Shown here in pieces: positions 17,048 to 19,372 of a stretch of DNA of 64,000 nucleotides. Under the pieces are notes generated by a model that was not told the DNA's origin, ran no database searches, and saw nothing but the letters and a program-made list of their open reading frames with translations. Source of the stretch: Escherichia coli (GTDB taxonomy: Bacteria > Pseudomonadota > Gammaproteobacteria > Enterobacterales > Enterobacteriaceae); assembly GCF_003334405.1 (NCBI RefSeq), contig NZ_QOWM01000016.1. The stretch is one strand, 5' to 3'. Positions within the stretch are counted from its first letter, which is position 1; the number at the start of each line of letters is the position of its first letter. Both the position numbers and the translations under genes were made by a program.

Positions 17048-17974
17048 TTATGCTGCCCACTGGCTTAGGAATATCCCTAAAACAAACAGCAGGTTAGTCA
17101 GTAACGCTCCCTTGACAGTACGTTCCAGCATTGGTCGCATCGCCACCGGGTCCATTTCCCGCATCACATAACGGGCTTGCTTCACCAGTAATGGTGCCGC
17201 CAGCAGGAACAGCCAGCCCCACAGGCTATGCAGCGAAAAGAGATTAAACAGCGCCAGACACACCAGCGAGCCCATCAGCAGGCAGGCATGATAACGACGC
17301 GCGTTCACTTCACCTAAGCGCACCACCAGCGTGTTTTTGCCATTTTCGCGGTCGCTATTGATATCACGCAGGTTATTAATATTCAGTACTGCCGTTGCCA
17401 GCAGGCCGCATGCGGTCGCCGGAAGGATCAGTGCCGGAATCAATGTATGAGCCTGTAAATACCAGCTCCCCATGACACTCAACCAGCCAAAGAAAACCAG
17501 TACGGAAATATCACCCAGACCGATATAACCATAAGGACGATTGCCCACGGTGTAGGTGATAGCGGCAATGATCGACAACCCGCCAAGAATCAGGAAACCG
17601 ACAAAATCGGCCAGCGTATGGCATGCCACTGCAACCAGTGCCAGCCCGGAGAGACAGATGAGCACGACGGTAATAATGAGCGCCCGTTTCATCTCTTGCT
17701 GGGTAATGACCCCTTTTTGCATGCCGCGTAGCGGCCCAATGCGGTCAGGTTTATCGCTGCCTTTTACCGCATCGCCGTAATCATTGGCGAGGTTAGAAAG
17801 GATCTGTAATAGCCCGGCGGTAATTAGTGCCAGCAGGGCGACCAGCGGATCGAAGTGACCTTGCCACCATGCCAGCGCTGTCCCGACGATAATTGCAGCA
17901 AAGGCGAGGGGGAGGGTTTTAGGTCGTAAACTTTCCAGCCACGCCTGAGTTCGGCTAATTTGTTGTTCAGTCAT
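17048..17974 (-). CDS. menA: 1,4-dihydroxy-2-naphthoate octaprenyltransferase
   Basis: ORF 17048..17986; start at 17974 gives the 308-aa MTEQQISRTQAWLESLRPKTLPLAF... UbiA-family membrane protein. Confidence 0.93.
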   Translation of the reverse strand: MTEQQISRTQAWLESLRPKTLPLAFAAIIVGTALAWWQGHFDPLVALLALITAGLLQILSNLANDYGDAVKGSDKPDRIGPLRGMQKGVITQQEMKRALIITVVLICLSGLALVAVACHTLADFVGFLILGGLSIIAAITYTVGNRPYGYIGLGDISVLVFFGWLSVMGSWYLQAHTLIPALILPATACGLLATAVLNINNLRDINSDRENGKNTLVVRLGEVNARRYHACLLMGSLVCLALFNLFSLHSLWGWLFLLAAPLLVKQARYVMREMDPVAMRPMLERTVKGALLTNLLFVLGIFLSQWAA

Positions 17975-17983
17975 AATACGCGC

Positions 17984-18011
17984 CAATAAAAATGGGGCCT
18001 TTCAGCCCCAT
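17984..18011 (-). terminator. intrinsic terminator downstream of hslU
   Basis: Minus-strand stem atggggc/gccccat with 6-nt loop, followed by a U-run; sits between the hslU stop and the menA start. Confidence 0.7.
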
Positions 18012-18040
18012 CAAACAATGATGAAAATGATTGAACGCGA

Positions 18041-19372
18041 TTATAGGATAAAACGGCTCAGATCTTCATCTGCCACCAACGCATCCAGATGTTTGCTCAC
18101 ATAATCTGCGTCAATAGTGATATTTTGACCGCTTAAATCGCTGGCGTCGTAGGAAATCTCTTCCATTAAACGCTCCAGAACAGTGTGTAAACGACGAGCA
18201 CCGATGTTTTCGGTAGATTCGTTCACCTGCCATGCCGCTTCCGCGATGCGTTTAATACCGGAGTCGGTAAACTCGATATTTACGCCTTCAGTCGCCATCA
18301 GTGCTTTGTACTGCACGGTGATAGAGGCATTCGGCTCGGTCAGAATACGCTCGAAGTCGCTGGTGGTCAGCGCCTGCAGTTCAACGCGGATTGGCAGACG
18401 ACCTTGCAGTTCCGGGATCAGGTCAGACGGTTTCGCAATCTGGAACGCGCCAGAAGCGATAAACAGAATGTGGTCAGTTTTGACCATCCCGTGTTTGGTG
18501 GAAACGGTGCAACCTTCTACCAGCGGCAGCAGGTCACGCTGAACGCCTTCACGAGAAACATCCGGACCGGAAGACTCGCCGCGCTTACAGATTTTGTCGA
18601 TTTCGTCGATAAACACGATCCCGTGCTGCTCAACAGCGTCGATAGCGTCTTGCTTCAGCTCTTCCGGGTTCACCAGTTTCGCCGCTTCTTCTTCAATCAG
18701 CAGCTTCATGGCGTCTTTGATTTTCAGCTTACGCGCTTTTTGCTTCTGGCCGCCCAGGTTCTGGAACATGGACTGCAGCTGGCTGGTCATCTCTTCCATG
18801 CCCGGAGGAGCCATAATTTCAACGCCCATCGGTGCTGCGGCAAGATCGATCTCGATTTCTTTGTCATCAAGCTGGCCTTCACGCAGTTTTTTGCGGAATG
18901 CTTGACGAGCAGCGGACGGTTCCTGCTGCTGTTCGGTCTGTCCCCAGTTGTTTTTAGCAGGTGGGATCAGCACGTCGAGAATACGTTCTTCTGCCAGTTC
19001 TTCAGCGCGATAACGGTTTTTCTCGATAGCCTGGACGCGTACCATTTTCACGGCGGCATCGGTCAGATCGCGAATAATAGAATCCACTTCCTTACCGACG
19101 TAGCCCACTTCGGTGAATTTGGTCGCTTCAACTTTGATGAACGGCGCATTCGCCAGCTTAGCCAGACGACGGGCGATTTCAGTTTTACCGACACCGGTCG
19201 GGCCGATCATCAGGATATTTTTCGGGGTCACTTCATGGCGCAGCTCTTCGTTGAGCTGCATGCGACGCCAGCGGTTACGCAGAGCAATCGCCACAGAACG
19301 CTTGGCGTTGTCCTGGCCGATGATGTGCTTATCCAGTTCGCTGACGATTTCGCGTGGGGTCATTTCAGACAT
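18041..19372 (-). CDS. hslU: ATP-dependent protease ATPase subunit HslU
   Basis: ORF 443 aa [27 protein letters not shown]...; AAA+ Walker motifs. Confidence 0.98.

Follow-up and report, generated by a model that had tools for sequence, protein, structure and literature searches.

The hslU–menA junction of Escherichia coli: an efficient intrinsic terminator and a conserved promoter-like sequence

The hslU–menA junction and its terminator

We analyzed a 64,000-nt stretch of Escherichia coli DNA (hereafter the window; contig NZ_QOWM01000016.1 of RefSeq assembly GCF_003334405.1) that carries 13 SNPs relative to MG1655, and focused on the junction at which hslU is followed on the same strand by menA. 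The identities given to both genes in an initial annotation of the sequence agree with RefSeq, and the neighborhood comprises the following genes and elements:

18041..19372, minus strand: hslU coding sequence, HslVU protease ATPase subunit (translation and RefSeq annotation)
18043..18041, minus strand: hslU stop codon TAA (sequence, translation)
17048..17974, minus strand: menA coding sequence, 1,4-dihydroxy-2-naphthoate octaprenyltransferase (translation and RefSeq annotation)
17974..17972, minus strand: menA start codon ATG (sequence)
16470..16955, minus strand: rraA coding sequence, final gene on the read-through transcript (annotation; SMRT-Cappable-seq)
16988..17017, minus strand: rraA's own promoter, TTGCCA-18-TATACT, in the menA–rraA spacer (scan; PMC3946193; PWM)
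19910..19967, minus strand: hslVU (clpQY) promoter/5′ UTR stem-loop element (Rfam RF02401, 63.6 bits)

The heat-shock hslV promoter initiates at MG1655 position 4122348, window 19973, just upstream of the RF02401 element (SMRT-Cappable-seq Supplementary Data 1, PMC6131387). The rraA promoter, listed in PMC3946193, scored 13.2 bits with a PWM whose frequencies approximate those of published compilations. We rejected an in-frame TTG at 17986, which would open a 312-aa reading frame, as the true menA start, since spacer length differs between species by non-multiples of three and RefSeq uses the ATG.

Three features occupy the space immediately before menA:

17991..18012, minus strand: terminator hairpin, 9-bp stem and GAAA loop (sequence, consensus scan, folding, covariation)
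17985..17990, minus strand: remainder of the U-run, TTTATT (sequence; in vivo RNA 3′ end at 17987)
17975..17984, minus strand: 10-nt spacer GGCGCGTATT, the only terminator-free part of the region upstream of menA in which translation initiates (sequence, alignment, anti-SD energy)

The hairpin arms, GAUGGGGCU-GAAA-GGCCCCAUU (18012..17991, minus strand), form 9 bp with 5–7 G-C pairs and are directly followed by the T-run TTTTT-A-TT (17992..17985, minus strand). The element has the structure of an intrinsic terminator, with a G+C-rich 9-bp stem, a GAAA loop and then UUUUUAUU, and it was the top-scoring terminator-like site between 16500 and 20500 in a consensus scan. Folded alone, the hairpin reached −14.8 kcal/mol (z = −3.6), a stability equaled by 0 of 200 shuffles. 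Sequence, scan and fold thus agree with the initial annotation, which had proposed a good hairpin and U-run between the two genes on their shared strand and had placed the terminator at 17984..18011, about 10 nt from menA; both span and gap were right within 1 nt, the U-run lying 10 nt and the mapped 3′ end at 17987 lying 13 nt before the menA AUG.

To assess covariation, we aligned 35 species with MAFFT, without pre-selection of hairpins, and folded the alignment with RNAalifold. The consensus was the identical 9-bp helix, with double compensatory changes at eight of its nine pairs. Helix cells were paired in 99.7% of cases compared to 80.7% in shuffles, and the covariation score was 0.60 compared to 0.22, with 0 of 500 shuffles reaching the observed value on either measure; slid registers were all ≤66% paired. 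These patterns indicate that the terminator helix is kept by compensatory substitution across Enterobacterales. In a comparison of 52 species, the hslU stop codon lay 25–35 nt from the start of the hairpin in nearly all, whereas the distance from hairpin to menA was 16–24 nt in Enterobacteriaceae and 33–168 nt elsewhere; because the first distance is near-constant and the second variable, the hairpin is anchored to hslU.

The spacer GGCGCGTATT carries a minimal 'GG' only, kept as TTGGC in most Enterobacteriaceae. The anti-SD duplex over positions −20 to −3 of menA reached −2.4 kcal/mol, ranking 54th of the 56 annotated coding sequences in the window, in line with the earlier proposal that menA lacks a canonical Shine-Dalgarno sequence. 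With a gap of only 10 nt, neither a promoter nor a normal ribosome-binding site can fit between terminator and ATG, and menA transcripts must therefore originate before the terminator or inside it. Similarly tight terminator-to-start junctions are found at tcdA, nuoA, gltJ (the SroC terminator) and yfeC.

Published 3′ ends, termination efficiency and read-through

Published work has already established the terminator together with where it ends transcripts, how efficiently and that it does so without Rho, as well as the transcripts that read through it and a separate menA–rraA unit. Term-seq (Adams 2021, PMC7815308) mapped the in vivo RNA 3′ end to MG1655 4120362, window 17987, with an abundant 28,609 reads, and SMRT-Cappable-seq likewise placed the transcription termination site at 4120362 (PMC6131387), flagging it as the known terminator of b3931 (known terminator center 4120376). 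Term-seq coverage fell from 667 upstream to 89 downstream of the terminator without bicyclomycin and from 681 to 106 with it (PMC7815308). The terminator is Rho-independent, as the downstream-to-upstream ratio is unaltered by bicyclomycin; the same study assigned a Rho score of 1.17 ('No') and an intrinsic score of 9.5. In M9, 143 SMRT-Cappable-seq reads started at 4122348, of which 67 ended at 4120362 and 9 within 50 bp of it; only 2 of the 78 terminator-reaching reads passed, with a median extension of 1452 nt (PMC6131387). Across these two data sets, signal past the terminator amounts to ~3–13%, making it an efficient terminator, and RNA-seq coverage in menA is ~13% of that in hslU. The 3′ end mapping that the initial annotation had suggested as a check thus already exists, and supports the terminator it described.

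Read-through transcripts spanning hslV-hslU-menA-rraA were seen directly by SMRT-Cappable-seq (Yan et al. 2018, PMC6131387, Supplementary Figure 4), which also defined a separate menA–rraA unit with its own capped 5′ end, as well as rraA alone. E. coli terminators are generally leaky: 75% of sites show at least 5% read-through, and 40% thereby add genes. RegulonDB lists the Rho-independent hslVU (clpQY) terminator, and this entry and the read-through of Yan et al. 2018 concern the same locus and the same element. The architecture is ordinary and largely known. The initial annotation had concluded that menA must be expressed by read-through or from a promoter inside hslU; read-through transcripts, the menA–rraA unit and the promoter-like site described below bear this out, although the logic is not new. 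Its further suggestion of a peculiar coupling of menaquinone synthesis to a protease operon is not supported, given the RegulonDB entry, the pervasiveness of read-through in E. coli, the passage of only 2 of 78 hslVp reads and the comparably tight junctions at other loci. It is unlikely that menA has an independent promoter for which the terminator would not matter; any such promoter must sit upstream of the terminator, which therefore stays relevant to menA.

Conservation of a promoter-like site spanning the hslU stop codon

The 3′ end of hslU and the leader beyond it contain the following features:

18039..18073, minus strand: block near-invariant at synonymous sites, GCAGATGAAGATCTGAGCCGTTTTATCYTATAATC (alignment of 21 Enterobacteriaceae)
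18040..18045, minus strand: predicted −10 hexamer TATAAT, a perfect 6/6 match (sequence, PWM scan)
18064..18069, minus strand: −35-like hexamer ATGAAG, 3/6 to TTGACA, with an 18-bp spacer to the −10 (PWM scan)
18031..18036, minus strand: predicted transcription start region, 5–9 nt past the −10 (standard sigma70 geometry)
18019..18027, minus strand: motif TTTTCATCA, lying after the hslU stop and ahead of the hairpin, conserved in Enterobacteriaceae only (alignments)

Synonymous diversity over the last 10 hslU codons was 0.096 compared to a gene mean of 0.333, ranking third lowest of 394 windows; residues 1–16 and 432–443 were the only segments with the lowest diversity in the gene, and ~35 nt at the 3′ end are frozen at synonymous sites. 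This constraint acts at the nucleotide level. Within the block, TATAAT joins the second and third bases of the Leu443 codon (CTA) to the TAA stop codon and the following T. The hexamer is depleted in the window (10 found, 18 expected). ATGAAG-18-TATAAT scored 9.9 bits, which places it within the top 0.02% of window positions by the approximate-frequency PWM and above every other site in the 470 nt preceding menA; it lacks an extended −10 TG, and a simple consensus scan of the region did not report it.

YTA-TAA-T is kept in 46 species from five families, while the adjacent CGN, TTY and ATH codons vary. The terminal leucine is YTA in 46 of 46 species of the TATAAT lineage, compared to 2–30% third-base A at 31 other invariant leucine codons, so that the TATAAT site is conserved beyond coding constraint. 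The ATGAAG hexamer and its spacing are identical in 12 further genera, in which the gap between terminator and menA usually holds no comparable site. Where TATAAT has been lost, menA is mostly either absent from downstream of hslU or set off by a much longer spacer; in Acerihabitans, a site scoring 10.3 bits instead follows the hairpin. Independent losses are few, and phylogeny confounds this link between TATAAT and the adjacency of menA. The GAT GAA GAT part of the block is also kept in lineages without TATAAT, indicating that codon preference contributes to the invariance of the block. We found no description of the conserved TATAAT in publications on the locus, nor of the 13-nt junction or the missing Shine-Dalgarno sequence, and literature searches returned nothing relevant on a menA promoter, heat-shock coupling or an hslU 3′ UTR small RNA.

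Consensus folding returned the terminator helix alone, and no Rfam family matched the junction at the gathering threshold, chance-level matches appearing only at E up to 10. Searches for an antiterminator, leader peptide or aptamer that would mark a regulated attenuator or riboswitch found none, and the predicted leader upstream of the hairpin is only ~20 nt long. Pairing of UUCAUCAU (18026..18019) with AUGA-CUGAA at the menA start, around the terminator, occurred in the E. coli minimum-free-energy fold only and was absent from both the centroid and the RNAalifold consensus; its cells were 80.4% paired compared to 79.9% in shuffles (183/500), with zero compensatory changes. A candidate anti-terminator, CAUCA/UGAUG, comprises just 5 bp, leaves the G-C core untouched and has two invariant arms, and is thus without support. 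The inverted repeat CAGAT-GAAG-ATCTG (18072..18059) was likewise considered as an FNR/CRP-type site and rejected by inspection, since neither the orientation of its half-sites nor its placement with respect to the −10 is suitable. Leader structures therefore lend no support to regulated read-through into menA.

Proposed attenuation of menA and competing explanations

The hairpin and U-run form the intrinsic terminator of the hslVU heat-shock operon, which stops most polymerases at 17987. In Enterobacteriaceae, the spacer past the terminator has been compressed, and the menA initiation region abuts the U-run with essentially no Shine-Dalgarno sequence. We propose, as the probable account of the locus as a whole, that menA–rraA is transcribed only by polymerases that cross the terminator. 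Some of these would leak, in small number, from the sigma32-dependent hslV promoter; others would most probably come from the conserved sigma70-type promoter whose putative −10 is TATAAT (18045..18040) and whose transcripts may start ~20 nt upstream of the hairpin. Judged from sequence and conservation, this promoter-like site probably adds menA transcription beyond the hslVU leak. The terminator would serve as a constitutive attenuator in the menA 5′ leader, and attenuation together with a poor ribosome-binding site would hold the membrane enzyme MenA at a low level. Leaders of this kind are known: in the constitutive 5′ UTR attenuators of the Adams et al. 2021 class, a 3′ end upstream of an open reading frame limits downstream expression, as at menA, and the hslVU terminator appears in the 'upstream ORF' table of that study at −13 for menA (PMC7815308). 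Regulated leaders differ in having an alternative antiterminator, leader peptide or riboswitch, none of which was detected at menA.

Alternatively, menA could be supplied by read-through only, from hslVp and promoters further upstream in the hslVU region, with TATAAT reflecting selection on stop context (UAAU), on the C-terminal codons or on mRNA 3′-end stability. We regard this as unlikely. Such read-through is documented, part of the conserved block persists where TATAAT is missing, and the SMRT-Cappable-seq TSS–TTS table, which covers well-supported pairs only, holds no entry with a start at 41203xx–41207xx. UAAU is a favored, efficient stop context and could explain the conservation of TAA-T, but not of the preceding YTA, which is invariant in all 46 species whereas the other 31 invariant leucine codons end in A in 2–30% of cases, and outgroups manage with CTG or CTC followed by TAA or TGA. 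Read-through alone also fits poorly with a menA–rraA unit bearing its own capped 5′ end, and with menA coverage at ~13% of hslU when only 2 of 78 hslVp reads pass the terminator.

It is a little less likely still that the TATAAT promoter and the terminator define a ~46-nt hslU 3′ UTR small RNA, DapZ-like and with UUUUCAUCA as its seed, of which menA transcription would be a leak by-product. The layout fits, with a promoter-like site, ~20 nt of unstructured conserved sequence and then a terminator hairpin; the Term-seq 3′ end is abundant; and an RNA of ~46 nt would be missed by SMRT-Cappable-seq libraries, which were size-selected for 1–6 kb. Hfq-dependent small RNAs have a long 3′ U-tail of about 6–7 or more U, whereas the tail at the mapped end is only U5A. 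Moreover, UUUUCAUCA is conserved in 21 Enterobacteriaceae and not in other families, whereas TATAAT and the hairpin span five families; the region has no Rfam family, and no mention of such an RNA was found in the literature. hslU was recovered by Hfq co-immunoprecipitation in Salmonella (PMC5137417). The gltI-SroC-gltJ locus shares the geometry, with an intrinsic-type 3′ end 14 nt before a co-directional start and downstream genes reached by read-through, but SroC is a demonstrated Hfq-binding small RNA released by processing, whereas a small RNA at hslU–menA is hypothetical and would have a shorter U-tail. CpxQ, a 3′ UTR-derived small RNA encoded in the same window (3955..4012), and DapZ offer a further comparison: small RNAs of this type share the terminator of the parent mRNA, and those of the DapZ type are transcribed from a promoter within the final part of the preceding coding sequence, a layout like that predicted at hslU–menA, but the hslU 3′ end has no family match, a short U-tail and a narrowly conserved seed-like motif.

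A menA promoter elsewhere, either CTGACC-17-TATTCT within hslU (−10 at 18347..18342) or TTGATG-17-TTTTAT over the terminator (−10 at 17991..17986), the latter giving a nearly leaderless mRNA that would escape termination, is highly improbable: both candidates fall in the top 0.04–0.14% of window positions by the approximate-frequency PWM, but synonymous variation is not suppressed in either region, TTTTAT has no A at the critical −11 position and owes its conservation to the terminator U-run, and a start ~5 nt before the AUG would provide neither a Shine-Dalgarno sequence nor a true leaderless 5′ AUG.

Going beyond constitutive attenuation, we entertain as a doubtful extension that the last codon and stop of hslU constitute a deeply conserved promoter firing into the terminator to yield a ~46-nt small RNA or a leader for regulated read-through — for example through a growth-rate response of the GC-rich CGCG discriminator, or through a trans-acting factor on UUUUCAUCA — such that MenA and RraA levels would be set by an unrecognised control point in a protease gene.

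In practical terms, C-terminal tagging or deletion of hslU, or an insertion placed at its stop codon, would disrupt both the terminator and TATAAT, and such edits could alter expression of menA (menaquinone) and rraA (RNase E inhibitor), confounding hslU phenotypes. Should the embedded promoter prove genuine, the junction would offer a clean case of a sense codon joining with a stop codon to form a −10 element that has persisted for hundreds of millions of years, with one terminator serving two units, closing the first and attenuating the second.

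The hslU-menA junction and its terminator

A 221-bp query spanning the junction was recovered at at least 99% identity in 5,426 of 5,426 complete E. coli genomes, annotated as hslU followed by menA. The window DNA is very near kin of K-12 MG1655, not identical to it: it runs in register with MG1655 4,102,376-4,166,375 (NC_000913.3 coordinate = window coordinate + 4,102,375), and the two are 13 substitutions apart, all single-base and without indels (9781, 18902, 25088, 35937, 37828, 42774, 51097, 51195, 51241, 57591, 59996, 60557 and 63922; the one at 18902 falls within hslU). 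Gene order on the minus strand is ftsN, hslV, hslU, menA, rraA, with the following features:

18041..19372, minus: hslU, ATPase subunit of the HslVU heat-shock protease
18045..18040, minus: perfect TATAAT, in which the final TA of the Leu443 codon (CTA) runs into the TAA stop and one further T
18043..18041, minus: hslU stop TAA, followed by a 28-nt spacer to the hairpin
18012..17991, minus: terminator hairpin, GAUGGGGCU-GAAA-GGCCCCAUU
ending at 17985, minus: U-run, followed by GGCGCGUAUU and the menA AUG at 17974
17048..17974, minus: menA, menaquinone-synthesis prenyltransferase
17017..16988, minus: rraA's own promoter, TTGCCA-18-TATACT
16470..16955, minus: rraA

The hairpin folds at -14.8 kcal/mol, a stability equalled by 0 of 200 shuffles, and ranks first among terminator-like sites of the neighbourhood in a consensus scan. 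The initial annotation had this terminator ending about 10 nt before menA, and reading the minus strand bears out both its coordinates and that spacing. The further claim that menA lacks a canonical Shine-Dalgarno (SD) sequence also stands up numerically: no anti-SD duplex in -20..-3 is more stable than -2.4 kcal/mol, which puts menA 54th among the 56 annotated genes of the window. Pairing is weaker still for rraA (-0.6 kcal/mol; 16956..16975) and ftsN (-0.5 kcal/mol; 20965..20984), both on the minus strand, and an SD is essentially missing in three of the six genes of the cytR-ftsN-hslVU-menA-rraA string. An in-frame TTG at 17986 (minus strand) in the U-run would add four codons to menA (312 aa by ORF finder); its frame is not kept across species, RefSeq does not use it, and we rejected it as a start. 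Known RNA elements elsewhere in the window are CpxQ (3955..4012, plus), the annotated 3'UTR sRNA of cpxP; OxyS (55910..56019, minus); the btuB cobalamin riboswitch (61009..61198, plus); the L31 leader before rpmE (24579..24631, plus); and REP-derived naRNA4/ES036 matches at 1135..1212 (minus), 6217..6258 (minus) and 25611..25652 (plus).

Termination here has been mapped twice. Term-seq (Adams et al. 2021, PMC7815308) lists a 3' end at 4120362(-), window 17987 and within the U-run, as 13 nt upstream of menA, with an intrinsic-terminator score of 9.5 (threshold 3) and a Rho score of 1.17, that is, not Rho-dependent; coverage in 800-nt windows drops across it from 667 to 89 reads in LB and from 681 to 106 with bicyclomycin. 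SMRT-Cappable-seq (Yan et al. 2018, PMC6131387) found the identical 3' end, flagged as the known b3931 terminator: among 143 full-length reads from the hslV start site (4122348) in M9, 67 stop exactly at 4120362, 9 stop at most 50 bp further and 2 read past it, extending by a median of 1452 nt. That study describes an hslV-hslU-menA-rraA transcript arising by read-through, and its data also define menA-rra and rra units. Because 75% of E. coli termination sites in that study show at least 5% read-through (40% add genes), read-through at hslU-menA is unremarkable and comparatively low. The initial annotation, which derived menA expression from read-through or a promoter inside hslU, described a real arrangement with sound logic; its view of the coupling as peculiar is not supported, since E. 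coli has many couplings of this kind and the literature already covers the terminator, its efficiency and its read-through into menA-rraA. The tight junction sits at the far end of a class that is small but real, with no qualifying 3' end closer to a start codon than -13.

3' ends in the Adams LB table with intrinsic score at least 3, at most 14 nt before a downstream start codon (columns: gene; position relative to that codon; intrinsic score)
menA; -13; 9.5
tcdA; -13; 12.2
nuoA; -14; 11.6
gltJ (SroC terminator); -14; 3.7
yfeC; -14; 3.1

Age and anchoring of the terminator

With HslU as probe, we assembled 80 species-representative loci. menA follows hslU in 57 of them, spanning most Enterobacterales; it is not downstream in most Pantoea loci, Tatumella, several endosymbionts and all non-Enterobacterales of the set. 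Of these 57, 52 have a clean hairpin with T-run. Run on an unbiased MAFFT alignment that covers, for 35 species, the 70 nt that come after the hslU stop, RNAalifold returned the 9-bp helix seen in the window; at 8 of 9 pairs both partners have changed in compensation. Helix cells were 99.7% paired, versus 80.7% in shuffles, and the covariation score was 0.60 versus 0.22 (observed values reached by 0 of 500); shifted registers were all at most 66% paired. The distance from the hslU stop to the hairpin is near-constant at 25-35 nt, and the hairpin therefore belongs to hslU. Hairpin-to-menA distance varies, from 16-24 nt in 21 Enterobacteriaceae to 33-168 nt in other families, so the tight junction represents a shortening, at the level of one family, of an older order hslU, terminator, menA. 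Together, these comparisons show an ancient terminator whose position is tied to hslU. Outside Enterobacteriaceae, a GGGAGGC/GCCUCCC stem, whose 5' arm is perfectly SD-like and whose 3' arm resembles an anti-SD, is strikingly recurrent in these 70 nt (loci L031, L034, L042, L044, L052, L054, L058 and others); it is probably merely a GC-rich stem.

A promoter-like element at the hslU stop codon

The final ~35 nt of hslU (18073..18039, minus) are nearly invariant in 21 Enterobacteriaceae, synonymous sites included, while codons just upstream vary freely. Pairwise synonymous diversity over the last 10 codons is 0.096 versus 0.333 gene-wide, third-lowest of 394 hslU windows, with lower values only at the translation-initiation end. 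There, codons 1-15 (19330..19372, minus) are the least diverse of the whole gene (0.07-0.14), which would fit with the hslV-hslU junction and the start of translation being constrained. The frozen block carries TATAAT at its 3' edge, and an inverted repeat, CAGAT-GAAG-ATCTG (18072..18059, minus), overlaps the -35-like hexamer. Perfect TATAAT occurs 10 times in the window, both strands taken together, versus 18.2 expected from dinucleotide shuffles (97 of 100 shuffles had at least 10), as would fit with spurious -10 elements being avoided.

With an approximate sigma70 matrix, ATGAAG-18-TATAAT scores 9.9 bits (known rraA promoter, 13.2 bits), which places it among the highest-scoring 0.02% of positions in the window and ahead of every other site within 470 nt upstream of menA. 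The same arrangement is found in Serratia, Yersinia, Photorhabdus, Pectobacterium, Brenneria, Hafnia, Arsenophonus, Rahnella, Rouxiella, Dickeya, Moellerella and Edwardsiella, 12 genera in which neighbouring CGN, TTY and ATH codons vary. The terminal HslU Leu is CTA or TTA in 46 of 46 TATAAT-carrying species, a circular figure, as species were picked by TATAAT, that becomes 47 of 50 with four TATAAT-less members of the same families; at other invariant HslU Leu columns (n=31), third-base A occurs in just 2-30% of species. Where CTG or CTC precedes the stop, as in Erwiniaceae, Budvicia, Plesiomonas, Aeromonas, Ferrimonas, Zobellella, and also Mangrovibacter, Morganella and Acerihabitans, either menA is not found downstream or the spacer is long, except in Acerihabitans, which has a 10.3-bit promoter-like site downstream of the hairpin; the phylogenetic association of TATAAT with menA reflects few independent events. 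Most TATAAT-keeping families have no consistent promoter-like site between terminator and menA. Mangrovibacter yixingensis (locus L016, 4333..4478), a member of Enterobacteriaceae, has lost TATAAT (TTG TAA) and carries ~75 additional nt between hslU stop and hairpin while keeping hairpin and menA 20 nt apart, and is a natural variant separating TATAAT from the tight junction. Our finding is a promoter-like TATAAT on the hslU stop codon, upstream of the terminator, that is strongly constrained at the nucleotide level; we found no earlier description of it.

Routes of menA transcription

In the simplest account, the element is the hslVU terminator, and polymerases transcribing menA-rraA have to pass through it. 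The heat-shock promoter would supply a small share, and the menA-rraA unit that SMRT-Cappable-seq resolved separately would most likely start at the conserved TATAAT, ~20 nt upstream of the hairpin. We infer this promoter activity and start site from sequence, and the poor -35 and approximate matrix weaken the reading. UAAU is also a favoured stop context, and because GAT-GAA-GAT is conserved where TATAAT is absent, codon preference contributes to the block's invariance.

A short promoter-to-terminator RNA of ~46 nt, resembling DapZ-type 3'UTR sRNAs, would also fit the anatomy, and Enterobacteriaceae do have a conserved UUUUCAUCA stretch (18027..18019, minus); however, that motif is not conserved outside the family, the mapped tail is just U5A, no Rfam family matches, and a literature search turned up no mention of such an RNA. 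In the interval between hslU stop and terminator, TTTTCATCA (18019..18027, minus) hardly changes across Enterobacteriaceae, unlike the spacer bases on either side of it. It could pair with AUGA..GAA at the start of menA, and the E. coli MFE fold shows such a leader/start-codon pairing, which has no support from covariation. That menA depends on read-through only, with TATAAT conserved for other reasons, we consider unlikely. Two further candidate promoters, one at 18347 and one that overlaps the terminator, are less likely, as they lack conservation or the -11 A, and no antiterminator, leader peptide or aptamer was evident.

To the published record, this analysis adds an ancient, hslU-anchored terminator, its compaction against menA in Enterobacteriaceae, and a strongly constrained promoter-like TATAAT at the hslU stop. 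With transcription from that TATAAT, the terminator would serve menA as a constitutive leader attenuator, which together with the near-absent SD may hold menA expression low.
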